A program made the translations under genes and the position numbers. The notes beneath the pieces were generated by a model, which had not been told where the DNA came from, did not search any database, and was given only the letters and a program-made list of their open reading frames with translations. A DNA stretch of 64,000 nt from assembly GCA_029565935.1 (NCBI GenBank), contig JAKQNF010000016.1:116031-180030 (forward strand), in the 5' to 3' direction. Origin of the DNA: Bacillota bacterium. GTDB lineage: Bacteria; Bacillota; DTU025; MWDF01. This document shows, piece after piece, positions 32,183-60,800 of the stretch; position 1 is the first letter of the stretch; every line of letters begins with the position of its first letter.

Positions 32183-32277
32183 GGGGGTGGATGGGTCCCG
32201 GTGGGTCCCTCGGTCTTCAAAACCGGTGGCGGGCACTTTGTGTCCGCGGTGGGTTCGATTCCCACACACTCCCGCCA
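32183..32277 (+). tRNA. selC: tRNA-Sec (anticodon UCA)
   Basis: Hand-folded. The acceptor arm is 8 positions (7 bp plus 1 mismatch). The D-stem is 6 bp (GGGTCC/GGGTCC with G-U pairs) with a 4-nt loop. The anticodon loop is CTTCAAA with TCA at 32217-32219. There is a long ~8-bp variable arm and a 5-bp T-stem with loop TTCGATT. The 3' end is G-CCA. The 8/5 geometry and 6-bp D-stem are tRNA-Sec hallmarks. Confidence 0.9.
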
Positions 32278-35764: not shown

Positions 35765-35837
35765 CCATCTACGACAACCGTGCGACCACCCATCAATCCG
35801 CTAGTCTTTGATGTAGAGCACCATGCGAGGTGAGGAT

Positions 35838-37262
35838 ATGGATTCTTCAAGTAAGGATTCGTTAAGGGCCTTGCCCTCGATAGATTCTCTGATCGGATCG
35901 GACGAGGGCAAGAGGCTTTGCATATCGTACGGGAAGGCCGCCGCCGTAAAGGAGCTCAGGGCGGCGCTGGCATCACTAAGGGATGCCAGCACCCAAATCG
36001 CCGACAGGCAGCAGGCTGCGGCATACGCGCTTGCCCAAGCCGGAAAGAAGCTTAGGTCGAACCTTCCCGGCCTGGTGAGGGTAATAAACGCGACGGGCGT
36101 GGTGCTCCATACCAATTTAGGAAGAGCACCGCTTTCGAGCATGGCGATAAGGGCGGCCCAGGAAGCCGCCGAAGGTTACAACGACCTGGAGTACGACCTT
36201 GCGCAGGGCAGGAGGGGCTCAAGGCAAGCACATGTTGCGGGGCTCGCCGCATCGCTGATAGGGGCGGAGGCCGCCCTCGTGGTGAACAACAACGCGGCGG
36301 CGGTGCTCCTTTGCCTCGATGCGCTCGCGAAGGGAGGGAAAGTCGCCGTATCTAGAGGCGAGCTCGTGGAGATAGGCGGCTCCTTCAGGGTGCCTGACAT
36401 AATGTCGGTGACGGGCGCCGTCCTTCTGGAAGTAGGCACGACCAACAGGACCAGGGTTTCTGACTACGAGAAGGCTGCTATGGAAGGCGCCGCAGCGATA
36501 CTAAAGGTCCATCCTTCCAATTTCCGGGTGACTGGCTTCACTTCCGAAGTCGGGACAAGGGAACTGTCCATAATCGCCAAGAAGCACGATATCCCCCTCA
36601 TATTCGACGTCGGATCCGGCTGCATGGCGAATGTGGAAGCATTCGGGCTGCCTTCGGAGCCTTCTCCCAAAGTCGCCATTGAAGAAGGGGCCGACATAGT
36701 GACCTTCTCCGCTGACAAGCTGCTCGGAGGGCCGCAATGCGGCATCATAGCGGGGAAGGCCGACCTGGTGGCGAAGATCGCCCGTTCGCCCCTCGCGAGG
36801 GCCTTCAGGGTGGACAAGATGAGGATAGCGGCGCTTGCGGCGACGTTGGCACAGTACGAATCAGAGGATACGATGTCCGACATCCCGGTCATCGCGATGC
36901 TCAAGGAACCGTTCGATGTGACGATGTCTAGGGCGGTGAAGCTCTGCTCCATGCTCAAGGGTCGGGCATGGGGCCGTGCTGGGCTGGATGGCGTCGCGTT
37001 TAAGCCGGTGGAGACCCTTGACGAGGTGGGCGGAGGGTCCCTTCCCGGCGCCACGCTGAAGGGTGCAGGAGTGCATGTCAGTTCGAAGGGCGTAAGGCCG
37101 GCCGAGGCCGCAAGGCTCCTTAGGGAAGCAAAGCCGGCGGTTGTCGCGCTGGAAAGGGCCGGGGGGATGCTCTTCTCGATGAGGGCGGTAAGGGAGGAAG
37201 AGCTGGCCTCGTTGGCGGATGCGATTGTGCAGGCCTTCGGGAAGGATGAAGAGGGCACATGA
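35838..37262 (+). CDS. selA: L-seryl-tRNA(Sec) selenium transferase
   Basis: LRALPSIDSLI N-terminus and PLP-Lys context FSADKLLGGPQCG. The ATG at 35838 has the better RBS; 35823 is also possible. Confidence 0.9.
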   Translation: MDSSSKDSLRALPSIDSLIGSDEGKRLCISYGKAAAVKELRAALASLRDASTQIADRQQAAAYALAQAGKKLRSNLPGLVRVINATGVVLHTNLGRAPLSSMAIRAAQEAAEGYNDLEYDLAQGRRGSRQAHVAGLAASLIGAEAALVVNNNAAAVLLCLDALAKGGKVAVSRGELVEIGGSFRVPDIMSVTGAVLLEVGTTNRTRVSDYEKAAMEGAAAILKVHPSNFRVTGFTSEVGTRELSIIAKKHDIPLIFDVGSGCMANVEAFGLPSEPSPKVAIEEGADIVTFSADKLLGGPQCGIIAGKADLVAKIARSPLARAFRVDKMRIAALAATLAQYESEDTMSDIPVIAMLKEPFDVTMSRAVKLCSMLKGRAWGRAGLDGVAFKPVETLDEVGGGSLPGATLKGAGVHVSSKGVRPAEAARLLREAKPAVVALERAGGMLFSMRAVREEELASLADAIVQAFGKDEEGT

Positions 37263-39175: not shown

Positions 39176-39261
39176 CGCGCTCGACCGGGCGCGATTTAGG
39201 GCGGCGCCGGCTGGAAAGACCGCGCTCCCGGTGATATAATCACTGACAGTGACAACTGCAT

Positions 39262-39445
39262 AACCTGTAAGGGTGCCCCACCGTGTGGGGATAATAGGGA
39301 AGAGGCACCGGAGACGTCCTTAGCGGTTTCCGGCAAGCCCGCGGTCCCGCCACTGTACGCGACATGAAGAACCTGCGCCACTGGTCAGAAGCCGGGAAGG
39401 CAAAGGAAGAGCAAAAGTCGCAAGCCAGGAGACCTGCCCTTACAA
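39262..39445 (+). promoter_or_regulatory. Cobalamin (B12) riboswitch
   Basis: Conserved elements AATAGGGAAG, GTCCCGCCACTGTA, GCCACTGG...GCCGGGAAGGC and the B12 box AGCCAGGAGACCTGCCC (39423-39439). The boundaries are approximate. Confidence 0.85.
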
Positions 39446-39498
39446 GTGCTGTTCCGCCTTCGTGGAAAAAGGAGGATGCAGGCCGATTTGGTCTACTG

Positions 39499-39581: not shown

Positions 39582-40466
39582 ATGCGAAGAAAAACGATCA
39601 TAACGATGGTGGCCGTACTGCTGGTCTTGTCCTTCGCGACGATAAGCGCTCTTGCGACTGGCTATCCTGTGGCGATCAAGGACGCTACGGGGACAGAGGT
39701 GATCATAAAGGAAGAGCCGAGGAGGATAGTTAGCATAGTCCCGAGCGTGACCGAGATGCTCTATGCGGTGGGCCTGGGCGACAGGCTGGTCGGGGTCACG
39801 GCGTGGTGTACGTATCCCGAAGAAGCGAAGAAGGTCGACAAGGTAGGAGACGTCAACATAAACATAGAGGCCGTCCTCGCGAAGAAGCCCGACCTTGTCG
39901 TGGCGGATACTAGCATGAGCGGGACTACGATATCGAAGATAAGGGAACTGGGAGTGAAGGTGCTCGCCATAAAAGCAGACGACATAGCCGGGATGCTTGA
40001 TGCCCTAAAGCTGCTGGGCATGGCGGGGGGCAAGGAAGCTGAGGCGGACGCGCTGGTGGCGTCGCTCTCGTTTCGGATCGAGAAGGTAAAAGCCGCGATC
40101 GCCAAGTCGAAGAGCAGGCCGTCCGTATTCGTGGAGATATGGAACGAGCCTCTGATGACGGCGGGCAGGGGCACTTACGTGGACGAGCTGATAAGGCTGG
40201 CAGGCGGCAGGAACATAGCAGAGGGAGTAACGGGCTGGCCGGTGTTCAGCCAGGAGACAGTCATTAAGGAGAACCCATACTTGATAATCCTGACGAACTA
40301 CAACAAGGCGGAAGTACTTACGAGGAAGGCCTGGTCGGACCTCGCCGCGGTCAGATCGGGCAGGGTCATTGAGGCTAACCCGGACCTCCTTGTTAGGTCC
40401 GGACCCAGGTTGGTGGACGGCCTCGAGGAGCTGGCGAAGCTGCTGCATCCGGAGATGTTCGATTGA
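39582..40466 (+). CDS. btuF: Cobalamin/siderophore-type periplasmic binding protein (BtuF-like)
   Basis: ATG 39582 follows AAGGAGG. Signal peptide present, and RIVSIVPSVTEMLYAVGLGDRLVGVT is a class III SBP motif. It lies downstream of the B12 riboswitch. Confidence 0.85.
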   Translation: MRRKTIITMVAVLLVLSFATISALATGYPVAIKDATGTEVIIKEEPRRIVSIVPSVTEMLYAVGLGDRLVGVTAWCTYPEEAKKVDKVGDVNINIEAVLAKKPDLVVADTSMSGTTISKIRELGVKVLAIKADDIAGMLDALKLLGMAGGKEAEADALVASLSFRIEKVKAAIAKSKSRPSVFVEIWNEPLMTAGRGTYVDELIRLAGGRNIAEGVTGWPVFSQETVIKENPYLIILTNYNKAEVLTRKAWSDLAAVRSGRVIEANPDLLVRSGPRLVDGLEELAKLLHPEMFD

Positions 40467-40479
40467 TTTTAACGAGGTG

Positions 40480-41538
40480 ATGCCCATGCCTAGGAAAAGG
40501 GCCGCAGGATCCCTCATAGCGGTGCTGGCCGTCTCAGTCGTGGTGCTGATGGTCTCGGCCTCGGTGGGCACGGTTGGAGTGCCCGTAGCCGAGACGCTGA
40601 AGTCGGTGGCGGGCTGCCTTCCCGAAAGCATTAGGACGGCCCTTGGCATAGGAAAAGCCGACCCTGCCTTCGATGCGATAATAATGAAGGTGAGGCTGCC
40701 CAGGATCATACTGGGCTTCGCCGTGGGCGCCGCCTTGGGCGCAGCCGGCGCGTGCTACCAGGGGCTGTTAAGTAATCCTCTGGCCGATCCCTACATAATT
40801 GGCGTCTCTTCGGGCGCCGCTTTGGGGGCGAGCATAGGGATTGTGCTGACATCAAGCAGCATGGCGGCGTTAGGAGGGGCGATACCGCTCTTCGCATTCG
40901 GCGGCGCTCTTGTCTCGATGATCTTGGTGATGGCGCTAGCGCAGGTAAAAGGCAAGGTCCAGTCCGAGAGCCTGCTGCTTTCAGGGGTCGTTGTTGGTTC
41001 TTTCATCTGGGCGCTCGTCTCTTTCACCATGCTGGCCGCCGGAGAGGACCTGCCCAAGGTGATGATGTGGCTCATGGGCTCGCTCTCTGCTCGCAACTGG
41101 GGCCACTTCGCGATGTCCGCCCCGTACATAGCCGTGGGCATCGGGGCGATGATGCTCATGTCCAGGGGCCTTAACGTGATATCGATGGGAGAGGAGCAGG
41201 CCCGCTTCATGGGCCTGGGTGTGGAAGGCTTCAAGAAGGCCGTGATAGTGGCCTGCTCCCTAGCGACGTCGGCCGCGGTCGGCGTGTCCGGGATAATAGG
41301 GTTCGTCGGACTAATAGTGCCGCACATGGCGAGATATCTGACCGGTCCCGACCACAGGGTGCTGATACCCGTATCGGCCCTGGCAGGAGGGGCTCTCCTG
41401 GTGGCGGCGGACACGGTCGCCAGGACCATCATCTCCCCCGCCGAGCTGCCGGTGGGCACCGTCACGGCGCTCGTCGGGGCACCGTTCTTCTTCTACCTGT
41501 TAAGGAGGTCGAGGAGGGAGGGGAAATCCGGCAAATGA
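40480..41538 (+). CDS. btuC: FecCD/BtuC-family ABC permease
   Basis: Polytopic protein with RLPRIILGF...GACYQGLLSNPLADPYIIGVSSGA. The track start at 40369 overlaps btuF, so ATG 40480 or 40486 is preferred. Confidence 0.85.
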   Translation: MPMPRKRAAGSLIAVLAVSVVVLMVSASVGTVGVPVAETLKSVAGCLPESIRTALGIGKADPAFDAIIMKVRLPRIILGFAVGAALGAAGACYQGLLSNPLADPYIIGVSSGAALGASIGIVLTSSSMAALGGAIPLFAFGGALVSMILVMALAQVKGKVQSESLLLSGVVVGSFIWALVSFTMLAAGEDLPKVMMWLMGSLSARNWGHFAMSAPYIAVGIGAMMLMSRGLNVISMGEEQARFMGLGVEGFKKAVIVACSLATSAAVGVSGIIGFVGLIVPHMARYLTGPDHRVLIPVSALAGGALLVAADTVARTIISPAELPVGTVTALVGAPFFFYLLRRSRREGKSGK

Positions 41539-42320
41539 AGGTAAGCATGGAGAAGATAAGCTATTCATACGGCAGGAAGGCCGCCCTGACGGATGTGACG
41601 GCCTCGTTGCCGGCAGGAAGCCTCACCGGCATAATCGGCCCCAACGGCTCCGGCAAGAGCACGCTGCTTAGGATACTCGGCTACGTTGCGAGGCCGGCTT
41701 CGGGGAGGGTCACGTACGACGGGGCCGACATATCGTCCATGTCCCCCATGGGAAGGGCGAGGCTCATAGGCGCCGTCCTGCAAGACCAGGGCACGCAGTT
41801 CCCGTTCTCGGTGGAAGACGTGGTCGAGATGGGCAGGTTCCCCTATAACGGGATGCTGGGCAGGCCAGGACGCCGCGACACAGAGGCAATCCAGAAGGCG
41901 ATGGCGATGGCCGGCGTGCTCGGCCTCGAGGGAAGGCAGATAACCACGCTTTCGTCTGGGGAGCGGCAGAGGGTTTTCATCGCCCGCGCGCTTGCGCAGG
42001 AGCCCAAAGTGATGCTGCTCGATGAACCGACGTCTCATCTTGACATTTCCTACCAACTGGAGGTCATGGAGATATTGAAAGGGCTTGCGGCCTTAGGCAC
42101 CACGGTCATAATCGTGATGCACGACCTCAATCTTGCAGGCCTTTACTGCGACAGGCTAATAGCCCTGAAAGAGGGCCGCGTAGTGTCCGAAGGTCGGCCG
42201 GACGACGTTTTGACGGCTGACAACATACTGGAGATCTACGGTGTGAGGGCGGTCGTGAAGAACAACCCCGAGACCTCAAGGCCCGGTATCGTCATGCTGA
42301 CCCCTAGCTCGAAACCGTAA
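41535..42320 (+). CDS. btuD: ABC transporter ATP-binding protein (BtuD/FepC family)
   Basis: GPNGSGKST, LSSGERQRV, MLLDEPTSHLD. It overlaps btuC by 4 nt. Confidence 0.9.
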   Translation: MKVSMEKISYSYGRKAALTDVTASLPAGSLTGIIGPNGSGKSTLLRILGYVARPASGRVTYDGADISSMSPMGRARLIGAVLQDQGTQFPFSVEDVVEMGRFPYNGMLGRPGRRDTEAIQKAMAMAGVLGLEGRQITTLSSGERQRVFIARALAQEPKVMLLDEPTSHLDISYQLEVMEILKGLAALGTTVIIVMHDLNLAGLYCDRLIALKEGRVVSEGRPDDVLTADNILEIYGVRAVVKNNPETSRPGIVMLTPSSKP

Positions 42321-42477
42321 GGGCGCTACTTTAGGCGGCACTTTGACTTGTCGTGCCTAAACAATAAGATCCGATGCCCGCGAGGAGATTCAAACCTCCT
42401 GTCTTTCGTTATTTGATTGTCGGCGAATCGGGCGTAAACGCCCTACTTGGTTTATAATTGTCTAAAAGCTTCATGGA

Positions 42478-43095
42478 GTGGGGGCAGCTTCCTTGAAAAA
42501 TTGCTACGGTAGGATCGAAGACGCCCTTGTACAGGTCTACACAGGAGACGGCAAGGGCAAGACGACTGCGGCGCTCGGGCTGGCTATGAGGGCCGTCGGG
42601 CACGGCTTCACCGCCAGGGTGATACAGTTCATGAAGGGCTCGACGTACTACGGCGAGCTCTATGCCGCGGAGAGGCTTGCGCCTGAGCTCGAGATTTACC
42701 AGTTCGGCAGGGGCTGCAGGATACAAGAGCAGATCAGGAAGGGCGAGGCAAAGTGCGATATGTGCATGGAATGCTTCGTAACCAGGGGTAACGTCACAAG
42801 GACGGACCTGGAGCTGGCGGCAGAAGCTTACGTGCTTGCATTAAGGACGCTTAAGAACGCCGAGGCGGACGTGGTAGTCCTGGACGAGCTCACCAACGCC
42901 ATAAAGTACGACCTGCTTACCGTCGAAGATTGTGTCAAGCTGGTTAATTCCAGGGCCAAGGGAGTGGAAGTTATAATCACTGGCAGGGACGTGCCGGAGG
43001 AGATAGCCGACATAGCGGACCTGGTCACAGAGATGAAACCCATAAAGCATCCCTTCGAGAAGGGGATAGGGGCCAGGAGAGGGATAGAATACTAG
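42478..43095 (+). CDS. cobO: Cob(I)yrinic acid a,c-diamide / corrinoid adenosyltransferase (CobO/BtuR/CobA type) with a Cys-rich insert
   Basis: P-loop GDGKGKTTAALG and VVLDELTNAIKYDLL. The insert is CRIQEQIRKGEAKCDMCMEC. Confidence 0.85.
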   Translation: MGAASLKNCYGRIEDALVQVYTGDGKGKTTAALGLAMRAVGHGFTARVIQFMKGSTYYGELYAAERLAPELEIYQFGRGCRIQEQIRKGEAKCDMCMECFVTRGNVTRTDLELAAEAYVLALRTLKNAEADVVVLDELTNAIKYDLLTVEDCVKLVNSRAKGVEVIITGRDVPEEIADIADLVTEMKPIKHPFEKGIGARRGIEY

Positions 43096-46875: not shown

Positions 46876-46907
46876 AGAGGCGCACCGCCGGAAAGCGGTG
46901 CGCCTCT
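46876..46907 (+). terminator. Hairpin after darA
   Basis: AGAGGCGCACCGC-CGGAAA-GCGGTGCGCCTCT: a 13-bp stem with no clear T-tract. Confidence 0.5.
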
Positions 46908-46936: not shown

Positions 46937-46954
46937 TTGTGAAGGGATGTACAA
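46937..46954. promoter_or_regulatory. Second Rex-box-like site TTGTGAA-GGGA-TGTACAA
   Basis: The left half is the canonical TTGTGAA. The right half matches TTCACAA at 5 of 7 positions. The site lies ~45 nt upstream of the hfsA-like start, next to TATACT (46961-46966). Confidence 0.35.
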
Positions 46955-46996
46955 AACAGATATACTTAATGAGTAAGATACTATGGAGAATGAACA

Positions 46997-47239
46997 ATGA
47001 AGACTGTTAAAGTGTGCGTCGGAAGTGCTTGCAACATCAAAGGCGCCCCAGAGGTAATCGAAAGGTATAAGAGGCTCATCGAGGAGAACGCCCTTCAGTG
47101 CGACGTTGTACTGAAGGGATGCTTTTGTATGAAGAACTGCTCCAGTGGCGTATCCGTGGAACTGGATGGGACCGTCCTCAACGGACTGGACCCTGCCGAG
47201 GCCGAAGTCCAGTTCAGGAAGTTGATAATGGGGGAGTGA
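46997..47239 (+). CDS. Small thioredoxin-like [2Fe-2S] ferredoxin (HfsA-like)
   Basis: 80 aa, VKVCVGSACNIKGA...LKGCFCMKNC. It has the same Cys pattern as the C-terminal domain of HydA at 54279-54527. Confidence 0.7.
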   Translation: MKTVKVCVGSACNIKGAPEVIERYKRLIEENALQCDVVLKGCFCMKNCSSGVSVELDGTVLNGLDPAEAEVQFRKLIMGE

Positions 47240-47245
47240 AAGCCG

Positions 47246-48925
47246 ATGCCTGCGATTCTTAGCGTCCCTTCGAATTGCAGGGACTGCTACAAGTGCATAC
47301 GGTACTGCCCCGTAAAGGCTATTAAAGCATCCGGAGGCCACACGGAGATAGAAGAGGAGCTCTGCATCGCCTGCGCCGAATGCGCAATCGTATGTCCTCA
47401 AGCTGCAAAGGTGGTCAGGGACGACAGGGGCTCGGTCATGGCAAGGCTCGCATCGGGTGGTACATCGGCCCTCGTACTTCACCACGCGTTCGGATCATCC
47501 TTTCCGGGCATCGACCCCTCAAAGGTGGTGGGAGCGGCCAAGAGGCTGGGATTCACGCACGTCTACAGCACCGCGAAAGCGTCGGCCGCGACCGTAAGGG
47601 CACACCTTGAGCTTGCGGGGGTGTCAGAGAAGAAGCCGATCATAGCATCATATTGCCCCGTCATAGTCAACCTGATAGAAAGATATTACCCTGAGAAACT
47701 GGAGAATCTGGCGCAAGTCGCCACCCCCATGGTCGCCCAGGCGAGGAAGCTCAGGAAAACGCTGGGCCAGAGCTGCTATATCGTATACGCAGGACCCTGC
47801 ATCGCCTCCAAGGGCGAGGTGGAAAGGCAGGAGTACAGGGGCCTGGTGGACGCCGTGCTCACTTTCGGCGAGCTTGCCTCCATAATCGACAAGAAGGGCC
47901 TTAGTATAAAGGATTGCACCGCGGTAGAACCTGAGGACGGATGCCCCACTGCAGAGGAGGACAAGGCACAGGAAAACAGGCCCGCTTCTGAAGGCGACCT
48001 TTACGGCGGGGAGATATCGGTCCTGGGTATAGAAGGGTCCATGCATGCCCTGAGCCACATGGACGACTACTCCGACTTCCCGCTGCTGGACCTTGCGGCC
48101 TGCGTCGACTGCTCTTTGTGCGGACCATCCGGGACGAGGGGGAAGGCGGGCCGCATGAGCCTGATAAGGGCCAGCACGCGGCGTGTCGCTGACGTAGGAG
48201 AAGCAGCCGCTGAGTGTTTCGACACATCGGCGAGGTATACATCGAAGGACGTAAGGAAGCCCGAGCCCGCCGAGGCGATGATCACGAAGGTGCTGTCGAA
48301 GATCGGCAGGGGCCCGAAGGACGACCGCACGGACTGCGGCGCCTGCGGCTACTACACTTGCCGCGACCTTGCGGTAGCGATCACCAGGGGCCTGGCGGAA
48401 CCCGAGATGTGCATGCCCTTCATGAAGTCGGGCGCAGAGGCCATGGGCAACCTCGTGGTGAACGAATCCCCCAACGGCATCCTCGGGGTAAGGAGCGACA
48501 TGACGGTCGCGCTGACGAACCCAGCCATCTGCCGGATCACCGGCCTGTCGGCGGAATCGATGATCGGCAAGCCGATCCCGGATATCTTCGAAAAGGAGCC
48601 GTTCAGGACGGTATTCGAGACGAAGACTACGATAATGAGGCAGACGAACGGCAACTGCGGCCTGGAGAAGGCGAAGGAAGCCTACATGCACCTGCAGTCG
48701 AAGGACATGGTGGTGCTGATAGTATCCGACCTTAGCAGGGAGTTCAAGGACAAGGAGGCCCTAGTCAAGGAGAGGCGGGAGACCGCCGAGAGGGCCGGCA
48801 GGGTCATAGAGAACCAGATGAGGGTCGCACAGCAGGTGGCAGGCCTCATGGGAGAGGCGGCGGCCGAGACGAAAGTACTGCTCTCAAGGCTTATGAAGCA
48901 GCTCGAGGAGGGTTCGGAGGAATGA
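47246..48925 (+). CDS. Sensory-type [FeFe]-hydrogenase-like protein (HydS/HfsB-like): 2x[4Fe-4S], H-domain, Fe-S motif, PAS
   Basis: CRDCYKCIRYCP and CIACAECAIVCP. H-cluster motifs are altered: ASYCP (vs TSCCP), GPCIASKGE (vs MPCxxKxxE) and AACVDCSLCG (vs MACxxGCxxGG). Then CGACGYYTCRDLA (RnfB-type Fe-S motif), then a PAS-like segment GILGVRSDMTVALTNPAICRITGLSAESMIGKPI. Confidence 0.8.
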   Translation: MPAILSVPSNCRDCYKCIRYCPVKAIKASGGHTEIEEELCIACAECAIVCPQAAKVVRDDRGSVMARLASGGTSALVLHHAFGSSFPGIDPSKVVGAAKRLGFTHVYSTAKASAATVRAHLELAGVSEKKPIIASYCPVIVNLIERYYPEKLENLAQVATPMVAQARKLRKTLGQSCYIVYAGPCIASKGEVERQEYRGLVDAVLTFGELASIIDKKGLSIKDCTAVEPEDGCPTAEEDKAQENRPASEGDLYGGEISVLGIEGSMHALSHMDDYSDFPLLDLAACVDCSLCGPSGTRGKAGRMSLIRASTRRVADVGEAAAECFDTSARYTSKDVRKPEPAEAMITKVLSKIGRGPKDDRTDCGACGYYTCRDLAVAITRGLAEPEMCMPFMKSGAEAMGNLVVNESPNGILGVRSDMTVALTNPAICRITGLSAESMIGKPIPDIFEKEPFRTVFETKTTIMRQTNGNCGLEKAKEAYMHLQSKDMVVLIVSDLSREFKDKEALVKERRETAERAGRVIENQMRVAQQVAGLMGEAAAETKVLLSRLMKQLEEGSEE

Positions 48926-50091
48926 GCTCCGGCCTTTACTACGAGGCTTCGTATTCCTCTTTGTGCAAGCACGGGGAGACGATCTGCGGGGACAAGGTTG
49001 AGATAGTCAAAGCCTCGGGTTCGATGATGGCGGTGCTCTCGGACGGCTTAGGTTCCGGCATCAAGGCGAACGTGCTCTCGACGCTGACCACAAGGATAGC
49101 GACGTACATGCTAAAGGAAGGCTCCAGCATCGAGGATGTCGTAGACACGATAGGCAGGACGCTCCCGATATGCCAGGTGAGAGGCGTCGCCTACTCGACG
49201 TTTTCGATAGTGAGGCTCTCGGAGGACGGCACGGGCAACGTCGTAGAGTACGACACGCCGGACATCTTCCTTTACAGGGAAGGTACGGTCACTAAGATAA
49301 GCACGAAGAAGCGCAAGGTGGCGGAGAAAGAAGTTTTGGAGGGCAGCTTCGAAGTCAAGGACGGGGATCACTTGTTCATGGTCTCGGACGGCGTCATACA
49401 CGCAGGCCTCGGCGACATCCTCAACCTCGGTTGGCAGTGGGAGAACGTGGCCGAGTACATAAGGAAGACTGTGCCTAAGGCAAGGGGCGACAGCGCGCAG
49501 CTCTCGAAGTGGCTGACCGGGGTTTGCGACCAGTTCTACGGTGGCAAGCCGGGTGACGATACGACGGTCGTATGCATAGCGGCGAGGCAGCCGAGGATGA
49601 CATCGGTGGCGATAGGCCCGCCCAGCAGGAAGGAACTGGATGCGGAGCTCGTAAGAAAGTTCATGGCGAGGCCGGGCAGGAAGATAATCTGCGGGGGGAC
49701 CACTGGCAACCTCTTCGCAAGGGAGCTCGGCGCGGACATGGAAGTGGACCTTAGCACGGGCGGGGACGGGATCCCCCCCATGGCGAAGATGAAGGGCGTA
49801 GACATGGTGACCGAGGGGATAATAACCCTCACGAGCGCGTTGGACAAATTAGGAGCCATAGATGCCGGCGAGATGACGAAGGCAGGAATGACAGGACGGG
49901 ATGCGGCATCATTATTGGCGAAGGCGCTGCTAGATGCGGACAGGCTGGATTTCTTCGTCGGAAGGGCCAAGAACATAGCCCACACCGACGCAGCGTCGCT
50001 TGTAGACTACAGGTTCAAGAGCCAGGCTGTGGACGCCGTCATCAGGATGATGAGGGCGTTAGGTAAAGACGTCAGCGTAACTTACTATTAA
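48922..50091 (+). CDS. PP2C/SpoIIE-family serine phosphatase with an uncharacterised C-terminal domain (HfsC-like)
   Basis: GDKVEIV...AVLSDGLGSGIKANVLS...HLFMVSDGVIHAG...GDDTTVV are PP2C motifs. The C-terminal ~170 aa are unassigned. It overlaps the upstream gene by 4 nt. Confidence 0.8.
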   Translation: MSSGLYYEASYSSLCKHGETICGDKVEIVKASGSMMAVLSDGLGSGIKANVLSTLTTRIATYMLKEGSSIEDVVDTIGRTLPICQVRGVAYSTFSIVRLSEDGTGNVVEYDTPDIFLYREGTVTKISTKKRKVAEKEVLEGSFEVKDGDHLFMVSDGVIHAGLGDILNLGWQWENVAEYIRKTVPKARGDSAQLSKWLTGVCDQFYGGKPGDDTTVVCIAARQPRMTSVAIGPPSRKELDAELVRKFMARPGRKIICGGTTGNLFARELGADMEVDLSTGGDGIPPMAKMKGVDMVTEGIITLTSALDKLGAIDAGEMTKAGMTGRDAASLLAKALLDADRLDFFVGRAKNIAHTDAASLVDYRFKSQAVDAVIRMMRALGKDVSVTYY

Positions 50092-50116
50092 TCAACCCAA
50101 GGAGGTTAATGCCGAA

Positions 50117-50614
50117 ATGACCCAGGATCTTAGCTCAGCGCGGAAATTCGAGAAGATCAATGGCATCATCGAGAAAAACGGTAAAAGTCAGAGCGCGCTT
50201 ATACCGATCCTCCAGGCGGTACAGACCGAGTACAGGTACCTGCCTGAGGAAATCCTAACCTACATCGCGACAGCGCTCGGCATACCCGCAGCCACGGTGT
50301 TTGGCGTGGCGACATTCTACGCGCAGTTCTCCCTTGAGCCCAAGGGCAAGTACGTGGTCAGGGTGTGCGACGGCACCGCGTGTCATGTCAGGGGTTCGAT
50401 GCCGGTCTATGACGCCATCATCAAGAGGATCGGCCTCAAGGAAGGCAAGTTCACGACATCCGACCTCAGGTTCACGGTCGAGACCGTAGCCTGCCTCGGA
50501 GCATGCGGACTTTCACCCGTGCTCATGGTCAACGACAAAGTATACGGGCAGATGACGGCCGAGGCGGCCGAGATCATCATCGATGCCCTTCTGAAAGAGG
50601 AGGGACTGGTATGA
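50117..50614 (+). CDS. hydC: NuoE-like [2Fe-2S] subunit of NAD(P)-dependent [FeFe] hydrogenase (HydC)
   Basis: LIPILQAVQTEYRYLP and VCDGTACHVRG...CLGACGLSP are thioredoxin-like 2Fe-2S motifs. Confidence 0.9.
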   Translation: MTQDLSSARKFEKINGIIEKNGKSQSALIPILQAVQTEYRYLPEEILTYIATALGIPAATVFGVATFYAQFSLEPKGKYVVRVCDGTACHVRGSMPVYDAIIKRIGLKEGKFTTSDLRFTVETVACLGACGLSPVLMVNDKVYGQMTAEAAEIIIDALLKEEGLV

Positions 50615-52494
50615 GCAAGGTGACTAGCGAAAAGCAGCTTTCTGAGCTCAGGGAGAAATATCTTTCGAAGATTTCCTCCTTCGGGAAGAGGGTCTTCGTG
50701 TGCGTAGGACCCGGCTGCATCCTCTCTGGCGGCGCCGAAGTCTACGACGCACTGAAAGCGGAGCTCGACAAACGCGGCATATACGCGTTCCTCGACGACG
50801 AGAAGGCGGACGAGAATTCGATCAACACGATAAAGACAGGCTGCCACGGCTTCTGCGACATCGGGCCGCTTGTTAGGATCGAACCCGGTGCGATCACCTA
50901 CTGCCACGTGAAACCGGAAGACGTGACCGAGATAGTCGAGAAGACACTTCTGGGCGGACAGGTCATCGAAAGGCTCCTTTACAAGGACCCCAAGACGGGA
51001 AAGCCGATCACTCACGAGTGCGAGATACCTTTCTACAAGAAGCAGATAAAAGTGGCCCTGGCTGGTTCGGGCAAGGTAAACGCCGAGGACCTCAGGGAGT
51101 ATATAGCCAACGGCGGCTACGCCGCTCTGGCCAAGTGCATCACCACGATGACCCCCCAGCAGGTCATAGACACTATACTCGAATCGGGCCTGAGGGGAAG
51201 GGGCGGCGGAGGCTTCCCCACCGGCAGGAAATGGGGTTTCGCGGCCGCTCAGGTCAATGAAGTCAAGTACATGGTCTGCAACGGCGACGAGGGCGACCCG
51301 GGAGCGTTCATGGACAGAGCCGTCATGGAAGGCGACCCTCACAAGGTTATAGAGGGCATGGCGATAGCGGGCTATGCCATAGGCGCTCATTACGGCTACA
51401 TCTATGTCAGGGCCGAGTACCCGATCGCCATCAAGAGGCTCACCAAAGCCATCGGTCAGGCGGAGGAGATGGGCCTGCTGGGCGACAACATCCTCGGCAC
51501 CGACTTCTCGTTCCACCTCAAGATCAAAGAGGGCGCCGGCGCCTTCGTATGCGGCGAGGAGACGGCCCTTCTGGCATCGATAGAGGGCAAGCGCGGAATG
51601 CCCAGGTCCAGGCCACCGTTCCCCGCAGTGAGCGGGCTGTTCGGTAAGCCCACGATCATCAACAACGTGGAGACGCTGGCCAACGTGCCCATGATCATCA
51701 ACAAGGGGGCCGCGTGGTTCAAGTCCATGGGAGTTCCCACCAGCACCGGCACAAAGACCTTCGCGCTCACCGGCAAGGTTAACAACACCGGCCTCATCGA
51801 AGTCCCGATGGGAACTACTTTAAGGGAGATAGTGTTCGACATCGGCGGCGGCGTAAAAGGCGGGAAGAAATTCAAGGCCGTCCAGATCGGCGGACCCTCG
51901 GGCGGATGCCTGACCGAACAGCACCTAGATATGCCCCTTGATTATGACTCGCTGCAGAAGGCGGGGGCCATGGTAGGGTCCGGCGGAATGGTCGTCGTGG
52001 ACGAGGACACCTGCATGGTGGAGATGGCGCGCTTCTTCATGAACTTCACCCAGAAGGAATCCTGCGGTAAGTGCGTACCCTGCCGTGAGGGAACCAAGAG
52101 GATGCTGGAACTGCTCACCAAGATAACCTCCGACAAGGCTGACGAGGCCGACGTGGACACGCTTCTGGAGATCGCATCGGTAGTCAAGGACAGCTCCCTA
52201 TGCAACCTCGGCAAGACAGCCCCCAACCCGGTGCTCACGACCATGAAGTACTTCAAGAACGAGTACGACGCGCACATTTACGACAGGGTGTGCCCCTCCC
52301 ATGTGTGCAAGGCTTTCGAGCACTACGAGATACTTCCCGAGCTGTGCAAGGGCTGCGGCAGATGTAAGAAGGTGTGCCCCGTCGAGGCGATATCGGGCGA
52401 GCTGCGGGCGCATCATGTCATAGACTACGACAAGTGCATCAAGTGCGGGGCGTGCGCCGAGACATGCGCGTTCAACGCAATCGTCAAAAGGTGA
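50611..52494 (+). CDS. hydB: NuoF-like flavoprotein subunit of [FeFe] hydrogenase (HydB)
   Basis: GLRGRGGGGFPTGRKW (FMN/NAD site), CNGDEGDPGAF, ESCGKCVPCREG, and C-terminal 2x[4Fe-4S] CKGCGRCKKVCP / CIKCGACAETC. ATG 50611 overlaps the hydC stop (ATGA). The track start at 50503 lies inside hydC. Confidence 0.9.
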   Translation: MSKVTSEKQLSELREKYLSKISSFGKRVFVCVGPGCILSGGAEVYDALKAELDKRGIYAFLDDEKADENSINTIKTGCHGFCDIGPLVRIEPGAITYCHVKPEDVTEIVEKTLLGGQVIERLLYKDPKTGKPITHECEIPFYKKQIKVALAGSGKVNAEDLREYIANGGYAALAKCITTMTPQQVIDTILESGLRGRGGGGFPTGRKWGFAAAQVNEVKYMVCNGDEGDPGAFMDRAVMEGDPHKVIEGMAIAGYAIGAHYGYIYVRAEYPIAIKRLTKAIGQAEEMGLLGDNILGTDFSFHLKIKEGAGAFVCGEETALLASIEGKRGMPRSRPPFPAVSGLFGKPTIINNVETLANVPMIINKGAAWFKSMGVPTSTGTKTFALTGKVNNTGLIEVPMGTTLREIVFDIGGGVKGGKKFKAVQIGGPSGGCLTEQHLDMPLDYDSLQKAGAMVGSGGMVVVDEDTCMVEMARFFMNFTQKESCGKCVPCREGTKRMLELLTKITSDKADEADVDTLLEIASVVKDSSLCNLGKTAPNPVLTTMKYFKNEYDAHIYDRVCPSHVCKAFEHYEILPELCKGCGRCKKVCPVEAISGELRAHHVIDYDKCIKCGACAETCAFNAIVKR

Positions 52495-52508
52495 GGAGGT
52501 AAAGGCAT

Positions 52509-54530
52509 ATGCCGATCAACGGATATATTACCGTAGATAATATGAAAGTGCCCCTTGAGGGCGAGGATAACCTGCTGAAGGTAGTCCGCAAGGCTGGGAT
52601 AGACCTTCCCACCTTCTGCTACCACTCACAGCTCTCCAGCTACGGCGCATGTAGGATGTGCGTAGTAGAGGTGGAGCGTATGGGCATCGTGGCCTCATGC
52701 TCGGTGCCGCCAACGGATGGCATGGTCGTGAGGACCAACACCGAAAGGCTCAGAAGGATAAGGAAGACCATCCTTGAGCTGCTGCTGGCAAACCATGACC
52801 GTGAATGCACCACCTGCGGCAAGAGCAGCCAGTGTAAGCTCCAGGAGCTGTCCGAGAGGTTCGCGGTGTCCGATCTCAGGTTCGGCAAGGGCGACAAGAG
52901 ATATGCGATAGACCATAGCACGCCAGCGATCGTGCGCGATCCCAACAAGTGCATCCTATGCGGCGACTGCGTCAGGATGTGCGCGGAAGTACAGGGTGTA
53001 GGCATCCTGGACTTCATGTACAGAGGTTCGAAGGCGATGGTGGGCCCGGCGTTCGGCAAGCCGCTCGCCGAGGTCGACTGCGTGCAGTGCGGACAGTGCA
53101 CCACGGTCTGCCCTACGGGCGCGCTCATGCTCAAGAGCTACACGGCCGACGTATGGAAGGCGCTGGACGATCCTAAGAAGACGGTCATGGTACAGATCGC
53201 CCCCGCGGTAAGGGTTGCTCTGGGCGAGGAATTCGGAATGAAGCCGGGCGAGATAGTCACCGGCAAGATAGTCGCGGCCCTAAGGCGCCTGGGATTCGAT
53301 CTGGTGTTCGATACCTGCTTCACGGCCGACCTCACCATAATCGAGGAAGGCAACGAGTTCGTCAGCAGGCTCAAGAACGGAGGCGTCCTGCCCCAGTTCA
53401 CGTCGTGCTGCCCGGGTTGGGTCAAGTACGTCGAGCAGTACCACCCCGAGCTGATACCCAATATCTCCTCCTGCAAGTCACCGCAGCAGATGTTCGGCTC
53501 GGTCGCGAAGAAGTATCTAGCCAAGGACATGAACCTGGATCCCAAGGACGTGGTCGTCGTGTCGATAATGCCGTGCACCGCGAAGAAGTTCGAGGCCAAC
53601 AGGCCCGAGTTCTCCCACGACGGCATGAAGGACGTCGATTACGTGCTAAGTACCAGAGAGCTGGCCAGGATGATCAAGGAAGCCGGCTTCAGCTGGGACG
53701 ATCTTGAGATAGAATCCTTCGACGTCCCGTTCGGCCTTGGCACCGGCGCAGGTGTCATATTCGGCAACACAGGCGGCGTCACCGAAGCCGTCCTCAGGTC
53801 GACCCAGGCGCTGCTAGGTGCGAAGACCGACACCCCGATAGTGTTCAACGAGGTAAGAGGTCTGGACGGCATCAAGGAAGCCGTAGTTAACGTAGAGGGC
53901 ATAGACATCAGCCTTGCCATAGCGAACTCTCTGTCGGCTGCAGAGAAGCTGATCGAAGAGGTCCAGTCCGGCAAGAAGGCCTACCACATCATCGAGGTCA
54001 TGGCATGCCCCGGTGGGTGCATAGGCGGAGGCGGACAGCCCATATCTGCCGATCCGGAAGCGAAGGCGAAGAGGGCAAGGGGCCTTTACGAGGCCGACAA
54101 GGGCCTGATGATCAGAAGGTCGCACGAGAATCCTTACGTGGCCGAGCTCTACAAGCAGCACCTAGGCGAGGCCAACTCGCACGAGGCGCACGAGAGCCTG
54201 CACACGGAATACGGCCACAGGAAAAGAATCCTGGGCGAGGACATCAAGGTTATGGTGACCGAGGGCAAGCGTGAAGGCATGGTCGACGTCGCCGTGTGCC
54301 TAGGTACTTCCTGCTACTTGAAGGGCAGCTACAACGTACTGCACGCCCTCATGAACAAGATCGATGAGATGGGCCTTGCGGACCGCGTGAACCTGCACGG
54401 CACATTCTGCTTCGAAAACTGCCACGAATCGCCCTGCGTGAAGGTCAATGGTGAAGTGAAGGGCTACGCAGGCACCGAGGACGTGGCGGAGAGCATAATC
54501 AAGGACAGGATACTTCCCATACTCAAATAG
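52509..54530 (+). CDS. hydA: [FeFe] hydrogenase catalytic subunit HydA (with a C-terminal thioredoxin-like 2Fe-2S domain)
   Basis: N-terminal 2Fe-2S and 4Fe-4S domains. The canonical H-cluster motifs FTSCCPGWVKYVE, MPCTAKKFEA and EVMACPGGCIGGGGQP are all present. The C-terminal segment is VAVCLGTSCYLKG...FCFENC. Confidence 0.95.
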   Translation: MPINGYITVDNMKVPLEGEDNLLKVVRKAGIDLPTFCYHSQLSSYGACRMCVVEVERMGIVASCSVPPTDGMVVRTNTERLRRIRKTILELLLANHDRECTTCGKSSQCKLQELSERFAVSDLRFGKGDKRYAIDHSTPAIVRDPNKCILCGDCVRMCAEVQGVGILDFMYRGSKAMVGPAFGKPLAEVDCVQCGQCTTVCPTGALMLKSYTADVWKALDDPKKTVMVQIAPAVRVALGEEFGMKPGEIVTGKIVAALRRLGFDLVFDTCFTADLTIIEEGNEFVSRLKNGGVLPQFTSCCPGWVKYVEQYHPELIPNISSCKSPQQMFGSVAKKYLAKDMNLDPKDVVVVSIMPCTAKKFEANRPEFSHDGMKDVDYVLSTRELARMIKEAGFSWDDLEIESFDVPFGLGTGAGVIFGNTGGVTEAVLRSTQALLGAKTDTPIVFNEVRGLDGIKEAVVNVEGIDISLAIANSLSAAEKLIEEVQSGKKAYHIIEVMACPGGCIGGGGQPISADPEAKAKRARGLYEADKGLMIRRSHENPYVAELYKQHLGEANSHEAHESLHTEYGHRKRILGEDIKVMVTEGKREGMVDVAVCLGTSCYLKGSYNVLHALMNKIDEMGLADRVNLHGTFCFENCHESPCVKVNGEVKGYAGTEDVAESIIKDRILPILK

Positions 54531-54551
54531 CCTCTTAAGAGGATGAACACG

Positions 54552-54579
54552 AGGCCCCGGCCGCTAAAGGCCGGGGCCT
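54552..54579 (+). terminator. Intrinsic terminator after hydA
   Basis: AGGCCCCGGCC-GCTAAA-GGCCGGGGCCT followed by TTTGC. Confidence 0.7.
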
Positions 54580-54693
54580 TTGCATAGGGTGCCCGGCGGA
54601 CGTGCCGCCATATTCCGCCCATCTTGAAGGGACGTTGGAGGAAAGTGCGGCTTACGCGGTGAATTAACACGTGACTGGAGGACATCGGGCCAT

Positions 54694-57832: not shown

Positions 57833-60800
57833 GTGCGTTGTTTGAAACTAAGTCGGATTCTCCTAGTATCGATGGCCATAGTCCTTGCAGCCTCGTCAGG
57901 CGCTTCGGCAAAGCTTATTTTGTCAGGCGAGAGCGTCTGGAAGCTGGGCTACGGCAGCCGGTACTACTCAACATTCGGCTGGAAGCTCGGGCTCGGTGGC
58001 TTCTTGGCTTCGCAGGAGCTGCGGCTGGACGTCAAAGGTGAGATCGTAGACGGCCTTACGCTCGAAGCCCATCTCGACAACACCAAGGGGGACGTATTCC
58101 AACAGCTCACGGTAGGCCTCTCATGGCAAGGGATAACGGCCGCGGGAGGAAGCATCAGATACATCCCATATATACCGTCAATGGGAAGGCCCAAGTCCTC
58201 GGTCATGGGCCTTTCGGCTGCTTATGCCGACGATAAGGTATCGGTCTATGCAATCGGGGGGAAGTCCCAGGGCGCAAGGGGAAGCAGGACCTTCAAGGGG
58301 ATGAGCGCCCAGGAGAAGATAGAGTATGTCATGGACGGGCCGTATATGCCGGCAAGGTCCGAGGATGGGCTGCTCTCGTCGGCAGAAGGGCTGTGGCACG
58401 CCGCGAGCGGCGCTGATTTCGATCCCGAGCTCGACGAAGGTTCAGTAGTCTGGGAGGAGTCTTCCATTGCGGGCGACATCGACGATTACCTTTCCATGAA
58501 CTCCCTAGGGTCCCTATGTAAAACCCTGTCCAATCCGGACGGCACCTTAGTGCCGGGACAGACCTATCCGTCTTCTTCCGTAGACGGCCTTTCGGGCATC
58601 AGCGGCGCATACATAGTATTGAGGGACCTGTCGTTTGGCATAGCTAGGAAGCTGATCCTGGAACTCATAGGGCAGTACAACGCAAATTTGGGACTCACTG
58701 GGGATCATGCGCTCAAGTACCCCTATGTGGCGGGCAGCACGACAGACACGGAGTTTCTGACCGGGCTCACCGAAGGCTGGATGAGCCTGGCTACGTCCTC
58801 CAAGGCGACGGGGGAGGTCTTCGCCAAGGTGCCGTTCACGGCTTTCGGTAGGGGTCTGATTTATCCCCTGGGTTCGTCGGACGTACTGCCGGAGACACTT
58901 ACGCTTTCTGCCGTAACTGAGGGCGGGTTGACGATCCCCCTGGCGGCGACCGGCGCGACGTGGACCTGCTACGAGGACAGGGGATACCTGCAGATGCAGC
59001 TTCCAGTCGGCTTCTTCGATTCATACGCGGCCATAAGGGCAGGTTATAGCTACAGGATCACCCAGGGCATGTATTTCCTCGGAGCAGGGATAATAAGAGG
59101 GAGCGTTGCCGTAAGGCTCGACGGGGTGGCCCTCAAGGAAGGTACCGATTACGAGATCGAATATGAGACCGGGGTCCTTCTGCTCATGGTTCAGATAAGC
59201 GAGGGGGCCGAAGGGCTTGTAGAGGTCGAGTTCGAATATGAAACGCCCGGAACAAAAGCCTGGCTTGCAGGGCTGGGCGTGTCATATAGACCGATAAAAG
59301 ATCTGGAGCTGCTGCTGGAATACTGCTATTCCTCCGATTCGCCTCTTCTGGCGGAGGATGAGACGACGGTGCCGAGAGAGCGTAGCTACGACAACCTCCT
59401 TGCAGCCGAGGCGCGGTGGAAGCCGGCCTATGGAGTGAGCCTTAGCGCGGGCGCGCTGTTCTCGGCCTCTACGTTTCCCGGGAAGGAAGCCATAAGGCCA
59501 AACGCGCCCAACGCGGTTACGTCGGTGGCGATTCTCGAGGACAACGCGGGTGGGATTTGGTGGGCGTTCCTCAGCAAGGCCGGAGTAAGCGTCCTTTCGC
59601 CGTATTCTGGGACGTGGAAGGTCGTCGGCCTGCCTGCCGCATTGTCAGGCTCTTTGGTGAACTCGGCTTTCTCCGACAATACGTACTGGTACTTCGGGAC
59701 GAGCGTCGGCATCGCCCGTCTCAGCGCCGACTACCTGGGCTTTGGCGAAGGCTTCATGGATGTGACGGCCCTTTGGAAGACCGCGGGCGCAAGGCAGGGG
59801 ATGCCGTCAGATGAGGTCTCGTCGTTGGAGCTTTTCGAAGGGCAGCTTTACGCTGGCACTCCCATAGGGCTGGTGGCAGGACCCGCGGATATCGCAGGAC
59901 CGTGGAGGCTGTACAGGCCCGCGGATCATCCTGGGCTTGCAGGGGGCGATGTCACCGGATTGGCATCTACCGGAGCCGGGCTTGTCGTGACGACCGCCGA
60001 TTCCGTCGCCTTGTTCGACGGGAACGCATTCGTCAGGATATCCGATTCAGGGGCCGTCAGCCTTGCGCATGCGCCGTTGGACGGCGGCATCGAAGCGGTC
60101 GCGGCGACAAGCCGGGGCGTGCTCCTCATAAAAGACGGCATCGTGGCCGGAACAGTGCAGCCGGCAAAGGACATTGTGTCGGCGGCGGGATACGGATCGT
60201 TCCTGTATTACGTGACGTACGAGGGCCTGTTCGCATATGACCTGGGGTTGGGGATCGAGACCCTTCTAGCAGGGATGGCCGGGCTGAGGTCCGTTGCGAC
60301 CGACGGGCTGGACGTATTCGCGGGAGGGACCGCAAACGAAGATTACTCGCTGCCGTTGGTAAAGCTGGCGTACCCGATGGGCGCATCACAGACGTTAGGC
60401 CCGGACGTCCATGGGATAGACGGCAGGGACAGGGCGCATTACATACCGCAGGTCCCATCGGAGCACACCTCGTTCGGCTTCGGGGCATATGTCACGGCAG
60501 GTTATGATTCTGACCTGCTGTCGGTGGACGCGTCTTTGAAGACGAGGAGCAGGGGAAGCCTTGCCGGCTCGGGGCCGGGGAGCCCGGATTCGGCATCTTT
60601 GGACCTTACCCTGGGTTGGAGGCCGACGTCGAACCTGGGGGTCAGCATGTATGAGTCCTTCTCTGCGGCAAAGCTCTGGTCCTATTTATCGGGCGCCGGC
60701 ACGCTGGAGCTTACGAATGCTGTCCAGGCGGGGCTCAGCTGGAAAGGCCCCGTCACGTTGAGCTTCTCGATGAATTACAAGATCACCGGCAAGCCCGGGA

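Follow-up and report, generated by a model that had tools for sequence, protein, structure and literature searches.

The first three genes of a predicted six-gene hydrogenase operon in a Bacillota bacterium (contig JAKQNF010000016.1) appear, by descent and architecture, to form a phosphatase-linked sensory [FeFe]-hydrogenase module of group C3, the HfsABC type, composed of a small [2Fe-2S] ferredoxin-like protein (HfsA-like), a hydrogenase-like sensor (HydS) and a PP2C-type Ser/Thr phosphatase. The module was analysed within a 64-kb stretch of this contig, referred to as the window, and coordinates are positions in that window. Modules that combine such a sensor and phosphatase are of an already described kind, as is their H2-dependent regulation (PMC5037454, PMC6776011, PMC5707799), and the new elements are an altered metal site in the sensor and the C-terminal domain of the phosphatase. 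Alignment shows that, in the lineage of the window, the hydrogenase domain (H-domain) of HydS has been rebuilt at exactly the residues expected to hold the [2Fe] subcluster. The overall reading, held with moderate confidence, is a C3-type module in a HydABC operon with a sensor that lacks the canonical H-cluster and reports Fe-S redox state. An initial annotation of this DNA had labelled the module as H2-sensing, a label that is doubtful for this HydS because the pocket for the [2Fe] subcluster is rebuilt.

Architecture and class of the sensor

The 559-aa HydS (hydS/hfsB-like gene, 47246..48925, + strand), identified by Pfam, NCBIfam and motif comparison, possesses two [4Fe-4S] domains (residues 7-56), the H-domain (residues ~77-300), a Cx2Cx4Cx16C motif (residues 364-389), a PAS domain (residues 402-474) and a conserved C-terminal helix (residues ~515-555). 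The corresponding Pfam matches are two Fer4 domains, Fe_hyd_lg_C (3.4e-34), PF04060 FeS (1.3e-9) and PAS (2.1e-7), and the HMM searches that had been recommended for Fe_hyd_lg_C, PAS and, in the neighbouring phosphatase, SpoIIE all returned matches. Seven of the eight N-terminal cysteine columns are 100% conserved across the relatives and the eighth, C43, is 81% conserved, while the RnfB-type cluster noted initially along with the PAS domain is formed by C364, C367, C372 and C389. The order of two [4Fe-4S] domains, H-domain, Cx2Cx4Cx16C and PAS is the layout assigned to the M2f/group C ‘putative sensory’ enzymes (PMC8163306), which bears out the group C sensory (HydS/HfsB) architecture originally proposed, and HydDB has a named class for a HydS paired with a Ser/Thr phosphatase, [FeFe] group C3 ‘phosphatase-linked (putative)’ (PMC5037454). 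A catalytic group A or B identity, named at the outset as the outcome that would overturn this assignment, is not indicated by the HMM scores, which fall far under the cut-off of every catalytic model (B1, 120.8 bits vs 450; A6, 66 vs 765; group A, 64 vs 406). By similarity, HydS nests within its family, with 55% identity to a sister clade with a canonical metal site and 30-38% identity to the remainder.

The ASYCP and GPC motif changes are present as first described, with Tyr136 at the position of C299 and Gly183 at that of M353 (numbering of CpI). Across the phosphatase-linked HydS the first of these positions is variable, with ~28% (30/109) keeping the proton-relay cysteine (TSCCP) that group C is generally said to lack. 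The most conserved C-terminal motif of the HydS family, LLGETTAETK, has a near-invariant Thr-Thr that is Ala-Ala at residues 538-539 in the window and in its whole clade, canonical sister clade included; if these threonines were a phospho-site, the clade of the window has lost it.

A rebuilt [2Fe] pocket

The window HydS was aligned with 69 proteins encoded next to the phosphatase gene and, separately, with 120 database relatives, and positions at least 90% conserved in the family were treated as family-invariant. The H-domain is changed at 13 of its 29 family-invariant positions versus 9 of 54 in the rest of the protein (p = 0.009), and when only changes not shared with the canonical sister clade are considered, the figures become 12 of 29 versus 4 of 54 (p = 3.5e-4). 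At the position of the bridging cysteine (CpI C503) HydS has Ser290, with a new cysteine at 289, and the P3 motif reads C286-V-D-C289, a C-x2-C spacing in place of the C-x3-C found in 109/109 distant relatives and in the HydA of the window. The lysine of the GPCIA-K motif (CpI K358) is Ser188, Ala-Pro-Ser (CpI A230-P231-S232) is His79-His80-Ala81, Ser-Pro at CpI S323 is Thr-Pro, and HydS Glu282 is changed to Asp. Among the distant relatives, the lysine and the bridging cysteine are kept in 109/109 and Ala-Pro-Ser in 107/109. In CpI, K358, P324 and Q325 contact the distal CN ligand and A230, P231, S232, S323 and P354 line the cavity (PMC10147833). The initial observation that all four H-cluster cysteines are kept is consequently accurate for the three cysteines at canonical positions, while the bridging position is occupied by serine and the fourth cysteine is shifted by one residue. 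An alignment artefact was considered as the source of the displaced cysteine and rejected, as the region aligns without relative gaps to both the sister clade and HydA.

The rebuilt pattern occurs in only five protein clusters of a 5.8-billion-protein collection, all five with C-x2-C. One (P0270) is identical to the window HydS and present in 11 contigs, a second (P0271) is 88% identical, belongs to ‘Firmicutes bacterium ADurb.Bin153’ and is present in 21 contigs, and the remaining three are P0278, P0279 and P0280; two of the five subclade members have also lost the proline of the GPC motif (AHC). The sister clade (P0272-P0277; loci L001 and L088) has a canonical pocket in a syntenic operon, and relative to it HydS is only 55% identical versus 76-93% for the other operon proteins. 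Beside the C-terminal cluster, the subclade-specific changes N363D and K375L both make the surroundings more negative; in a group D enzyme, aspartates beside the cluster cysteines have been argued to lower the potential of that cluster (PMC13104023).

These substitutions bear directly on whether HydS could be an ordinary functional group C3 H2 sensor, in which the H-cluster is assembled with Cys289 (or Cys292) as the bridging residue and the other substitutions tune affinity or redox potential. Such a sensor would account for the retention of four cysteines, for the conservation of C-x2-C across the subclade, for the constraint on the H-domain (dN/dS 0.11) and for an operon that still encodes a catalytic hydrogenase needing regulation, and known sensory enzymes tolerate the loss of C299, M353 and M497 (PMC8163306). 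It is nevertheless judged unlikely, while still to be reckoned with, because the K358 lysine and the cysteine spacing, invariant in 109/109 family members and HydA, and the Ala-Pro-Ser, kept in 107/109, have all changed together, because K358, P231 and S232 make CN-ligand contacts or form part of the cavity lining (PMC10147833) and because the two AHC members have dispensed with the proline of GPC.

Selection on the sensor

Relative to the 88%-identical orthologue (L091), dN/dS is 0.11 for the HydS H-domain, 0.037 for the N-terminal clusters and 0.055 for the FeS/PAS/C-terminal part, compared to 0.03 for PP2C, 0.03 for HydA and 0.09-0.19 for neighbouring housekeeping genes. The rebuilt H-domain is under purifying selection. 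Under purifying selection the window HydS has retained its PAS domain and C-terminal helix along with four cysteines able to hold a [4Fe-4S] cluster and its remaining Fe-S sites.

A decaying H-domain in a sensor module that is a non-functional relic carried in the operon would be in keeping with the divergence of HydS from the sister clade (55% identity vs 80-93% for PP2C, HydC and HydA) and with the dN/dS of 0.27 in the linker (residues 301-355). This explanation is very improbable given dN/dS values in the H-domain and the FeS/PAS part that are similar to those of the housekeeping neighbours, a new cysteine spacing that is itself conserved and open reading frames (ORFs) that are intact in many independent assemblies. 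A HydS pseudogene was rejected on the same dN/dS values and on the ORF being intact in the 11 and 21 independent contigs of the two closest clusters.

The phosphatase and its C-terminal domain

The 389-aa protein (hfsC-like gene, 48922..50091, + strand) matches SpoIIE/PP2C phosphatases of the SpoIIE/RsbU type at residues 33-220 (6e-15; PF07228, 56.1 bits vs a cut-off of 25). The catalytic domain spans residues ~5-222, and the metal-binding aspartates D24, D41, D156 and D212/D213, the loss of which would have counted against a phosphatase, show no variation and coincide with the SpoIIE motifs in alignment. The best solved relatives of the domain are SpoIIE structures (PDB 3T91 and 5UCG), while the model for SpoIIE proper (TIGR02865) scores 50.3 bits vs a cut-off of 490.8, with the phosphatase domain alone matching.

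Fused to the catalytic domain is a family-specific alpha/beta domain (residues 224-389) conserved to the same degree, with invariant GPP, D240, C257-G-G, P285-P286, G292-x-D294, T297-E-G and N351, and near-invariant A353-H354-Q-N-P. The initial annotation had left these ~170 residues unassigned, and searches of Pfam (19 members each scanned, E up to 10) and of the PDB with a profile likewise gave no match. A profile of the domain matched 1269 library representatives, and the best 150 of these were all the same ~385-aa protein or fragments, with no other architecture among them. The structure prediction that had been suggested for this region produced confident AlphaFold (AF2) models of the phosphatase (pLDDT 85.6 and 86.5), in which the best Foldseek neighbours of the C-terminal domain are methylglyoxal synthases (MGS; 1vmd, E = 3.3e-3, probability 1.0, TM-scores 0.39/0.41). 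Using a provisional E. coli MgsA sequence as query, hhalign aligned CGGTTGNLFARELG with ATGTTGNLISRATG (P = 3.6e-4, probability 37%), a match that spans CGGTTGN...TEG, and the hallmark of MGS is a GTTG phosphate-binding loop in a three-layer alpha/beta fold. On these models, the family-specific domain weakly resembles methylglyoxal synthase and is possibly a regulatory domain of flavodoxin-like/MGS-like type, in which a loop may bind phosphate.

The operon and its promoter

The module precedes the genes of a trimeric hydrogenase, all on the + strand. The three ORFs of the module were recovered with the positions and lengths (80, 559 and 389 aa) first reported, starting with the hfsA-like gene (46997..47239), which encodes an 80-aa thioredoxin-like [2Fe-2S] ferredoxin. 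The Pfam match of this protein to 2Fe-2S_thioredx is below the curated cut-off (PF01257, E = 2.9e-4, 21.1 bits vs 24.8), and its C-x4-C...C-x3-C pattern (C7, C12, C44 and C48) shows a conservation of 90% or more across 70 orthologues. Downstream of the phosphatase gene are hydC (50117..50614), the NuoE-like [2Fe-2S] subunit of a bifurcating hydrogenase (PF01257, 2.6e-51; NF005722, 144.8 bits vs a cut-off of 141), hydB (50611..52494), a NuoF-like FMN/NADH subunit of 627 aa (PF01512, 1.7e-48; PF10589, 2e-33), and hydA (52509..54530), the catalytic [FeFe] hydrogenase subunit (NF040763, NADH-dependent group A6, 814 bits vs a cut-off of 765). HydB orthologues are also called at 627 aa, and HydB scores 515 bits against TIGR01959, under its cut-off of 559. 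The HydA motifs are canonical (TSCCP, MPCTAKK and EVMACPGGC), and together the HydA model match and the NuoF-like and NuoE-like subunits place the enzyme with the electron-bifurcating group A3/A6 HydABC hydrogenases.

The junctions between these genes are tight. The hfsA-like gene and hydS are separated by 6 nt, hydS and the phosphatase gene overlap by the 4 nt ATGA noted initially (translational coupling), the 25-nt gap between the phosphatase gene and hydC, also as first reported, contains an AGGAGG ribosome-binding site, and the hydC stop and hydB start overlap as ATGA. The terminator between 50091 and 50117 that would have spoken against a shared operon with HydABC was not found, with no structure beyond chance at 50070-50130 (z = 0.29). 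Strong hairpins are absent from the interior of the six-gene unit and occur only at its two ends. A 13-bp G+C-rich hairpin 3' of a c-di-AMP-receptor gene (46876..46907, +; -35.2 kcal/mol, z = -6.8 vs shuffles), present at the matching position in relatives L001, L088 and L085, is likely a terminator that parts the operon from upstream transcription, and a 12-bp G+C-rich hairpin followed by TTTGC (54551..54580, +; -35.9 kcal/mol, z = -3.0) is the likely terminator of the six genes. All close relatives recovered share this gene order. Because the junctions are tight, the hairpins lie only at both ends and the order is kept in relatives, this analysis supports a single predicted transcription unit at 46997-54530 (hfsA-like, hydS, PP2C, hydC, hydB, hydA). 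No known RNA element was found in the operon by Rfam at gathering scores.

A promoter scan identified a sigma-70-like promoter (TTGTGA-18-TATACT, 46937..46966, +), the -35 region of which is overlapped by a Rex-operator-like palindrome, TTGTGAAGGGATGTACAA (46937-46954). Nowhere else in the window is TTGTGAAN4TTCACAA matched with two or fewer mismatches, and four relatives show no variation in the TTATTGTGA...ACAA half-sites or the TATACT -10 box. Operons of this kind have previously been proposed to be under Rex control (PMC10084766). No rex gene was found in the 64-kb window. L001 and L088 have one-mismatch versions of the box in the corresponding place, and the box is thus closer to consensus in the canonical-sensor clade than in the rebuilt-sensor clade (2-4 mismatches; the window, L091:9690-9707 and L085), a difference in erosion that may be due to chance, with five sequences only.

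Genomic neighbourhood across the family

A profile of the phosphatase recovered at least 597 species genomes, and the best 80 loci (labelled L001 etc.) were examined. HydS is immediately upstream of the phosphatase gene in 79-80 of the 80 loci, an hfsA-like small 2Fe-2S gene adjoins hydS in 64, and a catalytic [FeFe] hydrogenase occurs within 10 kb in 51. The arrangement of this hydrogenase varies, with an HfsD-type enzyme of 400-540 aa in 26 loci and hydCBA lying downstream in 9, upstream in 14 and in divergent or convergent orientation in 3; some loci show more than one of these. These counts show HydS and PP2C to be an obligate gene pair in the wider family, usually beside a catalytic hydrogenase that is presumably controlled.

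The variable partnership also bears on the alternative that HfsA and HydS are extra electron-transfer subunits of HydABC and not regulators, with the phosphatase doing an unrelated job. In favour of this alternative, the genes are predicted to be co-transcribed and are Fe-S-rich, and similarity links HfsA to the C-terminal 2Fe-2S domain of HydA and HydC. The sensor triad is also found with a different monomeric hydrogenase or without a hydrogenase nearby (29/80 loci), a PAS domain with a PP2C partner is a signalling architecture, and hfsA/hfsB deletions differ in fermentation phenotype from hfsC/hfsD deletions (PMC5707799), all of which leave this alternative with very little probability.

The initial annotation had remarked on the absence of a partner kinase, anti-sigma factor or STAS protein. 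The ~48 window ORFs scanned with Pfam likewise included no kinase, STAS protein or sigma factor, and what had been presented as an anomaly is the usual state in the family. At the 80 loci, no signalling family recurs in the 297 other neighbour ORFs scanned (HATPase_c twice, response regulators three times, and Rex four times, with Rex genes flanking the module in 4/80 loci), and a single APH/Pkinase-like neighbour gene was seen in L053 only. A conserved kinase beside the module was therefore rejected, as none recurs across the 80 loci, and the absence of a nearby kinase is the rule for the family and not peculiar to the locus in the window. The initial statement that the hfsD gene of Thermoanaerobacterium is kinase-like was mistaken, as HfsD is a ferredoxin-linked catalytic [FeFe] hydrogenase (PMC11837493). 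Because the phosphatase is an obligate partner in 80 genomes with no kinase travelling along, the search for the output should turn elsewhere, to the hydrogenase itself, to the often-adjacent adhE or to unlinked proteins.

The gene adhE (bifunctional aldehyde/alcohol dehydrogenase, ~865 aa) is within a few genes of the module in L008, L024, L066, L013, L016, L017 and L041, a neighbourhood that fits the reported hfsB-adhE regulatory link. Further, in 9 of the 80 genomes a 460-530-aa TnpB/Cas12f-like protein is encoded 3' of the phosphatase gene, directly in eight (L019:10266-11747, L020:11154-12710, L023:11180-12661, L021:11164-12684, L039:11193-12782, L025:7110-8603, L061:11180-12655 and L038:11189-12577) and after adhE in L066 (14182-15696), all outside the window. 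Its profile matches Cas12f and TnpB structures at 3e-9 with the zinc finger retained, while in the RuvC domain the first aspartate is replaced in 9/9 (GxSRG) and the glutamate is mostly glutamine. Because identity falls to 25-29% while the position is nevertheless kept, the protein looks like a domesticated, putatively nuclease-dead (TldR-like) relative, and one possibility is that in those species it provides the sensor module with a DNA-binding output. A ~90-nt noncoding block after the TnpB-like stop and before a terminator hairpin (L019:11760-11850, L020:12710-12800 and L023:12715-12805) is near-identical in three species with TnpB-like proteins just 62-67% identical, and may be a guide-RNA scaffold; within those loci it had no guide-target match, only self-complementary terminator stems, and it matched no Rfam family. 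A second conserved block lies 5' of a TerC gene (L019:12000-12075, likewise in L020 and L023) and reads GGGGAGTAGC...GTCAACA...AGCAAGACC, followed by a terminator; it resembles a yybP-ykoY manganese riboswitch and falls below the Rfam gathering score. In metagenome-assembled genomes of Desulfobacterota and Syntrophaceae, HydS is ~765 aa in L033, L043, L052, L067 and probably L046, compared to the usual ~570 aa. The first four of these loci encode, 3' of the phosphatase gene, a conserved 288-306-aa protein without a Pfam match (59-67% identical between these loci), and L046 has at that place a 296-aa ORF that was unmatched to this family at E <= 1e-8.

Other features of the window

Several other features of the window were recorded. 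A cobalamin riboswitch (39254-39455, +; 87.7 bits) is 5' of genes for a FecCD/ABC-type transporter and a CobA/BtuR adenosyltransferase (40369-43095). A tRNA-Sec gene (32183-32273, +) is next to an AIR-synthase-family (AIRS/AIRS_C) gene (possibly selD-like), selA and selB (34772-39175, +), apparently a complete or nearly complete set for selenocysteine insertion. A polyferredoxin gene followed by an aldehyde:ferredoxin oxidoreductase gene (21372-23638, +; AFOR_N and AFOR_C, E = 2e-116) contributes a further ferredoxin-linked redox enzyme. Downstream of spoIID, a Germane-domain gene and degV, a 1343-aa ORF (57833-61864, +) is present in all close relatives, and its syntenic orthologues (~1340 aa) have no Pfam match on record.

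Proposed function

In the proposed mechanism, HydS would lack a canonical H-cluster, with the four cysteines still holding a [4Fe-4S] cluster and the [2Fe] site gone or deeply altered, and would report the reduction state of its Fe-S chain (ferredoxin or electron pressure, possibly fed by HfsA) rather than its own binding of H2. The signal would pass through the C-terminal [4Fe-4S]/PAS/helix region of HydS to a PP2C made in stoichiometric amounts, and the methylglyoxal-synthase-like domain could add a phospho-metabolite input, the conserved second phosphatase domain with its possible phosphate-binding loop suggesting a second, metabolic input. The phosphatase would then dephosphorylate a protein encoded elsewhere, or a hydrogenase subunit, and so tune HydABC, with the whole unit probably also under transcriptional control by Rex (NADH/NAD+). 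The signalling mechanisms proposed for putative sensory [FeFe] hydrogenases are described as remaining unproven in a paper of April 2026 (PMC13104023).

Several points weigh against this reading. The CpI equivalences were transferred via motif alignment through the HydA of the window and not from a structure, and with four cysteines remaining, an H-cluster with an unusual bridging geometry is possible. Retained H2 binding would explain the purifying selection on the H-domain equally well. Contact between HydS and PP2C, like the substrate of the phosphatase, is putative, the methylglyoxal-synthase-like assignment is weak (TM ~0.4, a low hhalign probability and no HMM match), and the Rex box departs from the consensus at two positions in the window and at more in L091 and L085. 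Taken together, the HydS of the window is probably an Fe-S redox sensor or else an atypical H2 sensor.

A bolder evolutionary claim, which is plausible and yet somewhat short of an even chance, is that a small anaerobic-digester lineage of Bacillota (the window organism, ‘Firmicutes bacterium ADurb.Bin153’ and three further protein clusters) turned a group C sensor into a [2Fe]-less Fe-S protein that signals redox state and not H2. If true, the canonical sister clade and the rebuilt subclade are a natural before/after pair in otherwise syntenic operons. The subclade offers a natural experiment, with sensors that differ precisely in the [2Fe]-binding residues, and a comparison of these sensors would separate H2-binding-dependent from Fe-S-redox-dependent signalling.

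Comparison with known systems

The closest described systems are the C3 sensors, including HydS of Ruminococcus albus and HfsABC of Thermoanaerobacterium saccharolyticum. In R. albus a single cluster, with 111-fold regulation by H2 level, contains the sensor and its phosphatase subunit together with adhE and a ferredoxin hydrogenase (PMC6776011), and in the hfsABCD cluster of Thermoanaerobacterium HfsA is a small protein, HfsB a PAS-containing hydrogenase, HfsC a serine phosphatase and HfsD the catalytic ferredoxin-linked hydrogenase (PMC11837493). Deletion of hfsA or hfsB increased ethanol yield and adhE expression, while deletion of hfsC or hfsD diverted flux to lactate (PMC5707799), so that the sensor genes and the phosphatase/hydrogenase genes give distinct phenotypes. 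The module in the window shares with these systems the sensor order (2x Fer4, H-domain, Cx2Cx4Cx16C and PAS), the small 2Fe-2S protein upstream, the PP2C immediately downstream and translationally coupled, the position beside a catalytic [FeFe] hydrogenase and the absence of a dedicated kinase from the cluster. It differs in its hydrogenase partner, a trimeric bifurcating HydCBA downstream in the same operon compared to the monomeric ferredoxin hydrogenases of hfsABCD and R. albus, and, unlike the C3 members sampled outside its subclade, its HydS is without the K358 lysine, the Ala-Pro-Ser and the canonical spacing of the bridging cysteine.

Two putative sensors have been characterised biochemically, TmHydS of Thermotoga maritima (group C/M2f) and TamHydS of Thermoanaerobacter mathranii (group D/M2e). 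Like both, the HydS of the window has lost C299 (here Tyr), has a C-terminal [4Fe-4S] motif and is encoded with a bifurcating hydrogenase, and as in TmHydS its M353 is replaced by Gly, while TamHydS differs in having no PAS domain. Both TmHydS and TamHydS contain a genuine H-cluster and show slow H2 turnover, and the [2Fe]-site residues changed in the window are not reported as altered there. The phosphatase shares the catalytic fold and metal-binding aspartates with the SpoIIE/RsbU-type phosphatases of partner-switching systems. It is unlike them in having no N-terminal regulatory or membrane domain, with a C-terminal domain that weakly resembles methylglyoxal synthase instead, and neither a STAS substrate nor a GHKL kinase is encoded in its vicinity.

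Beyond the bacterial sensors, the eukaryotic [FeFe]-hydrogenase-like proteins Nar1/NARFL (IOP1) are without the [2Fe] subcluster, keep the [4Fe-4S] cysteines and have a non-catalytic role. Nar1 functions in cytosolic Fe-S assembly and not in signalling, and possesses neither a PAS domain nor a phosphatase partner. The state proposed for the HydS of the window resembles that of Nar1/NARFL by analogy alone, without close kinship; if the proposal is true, this HydS would be a bacterial counterpart of Nar1/NARFL that still signals via PAS and a dedicated PP2C.

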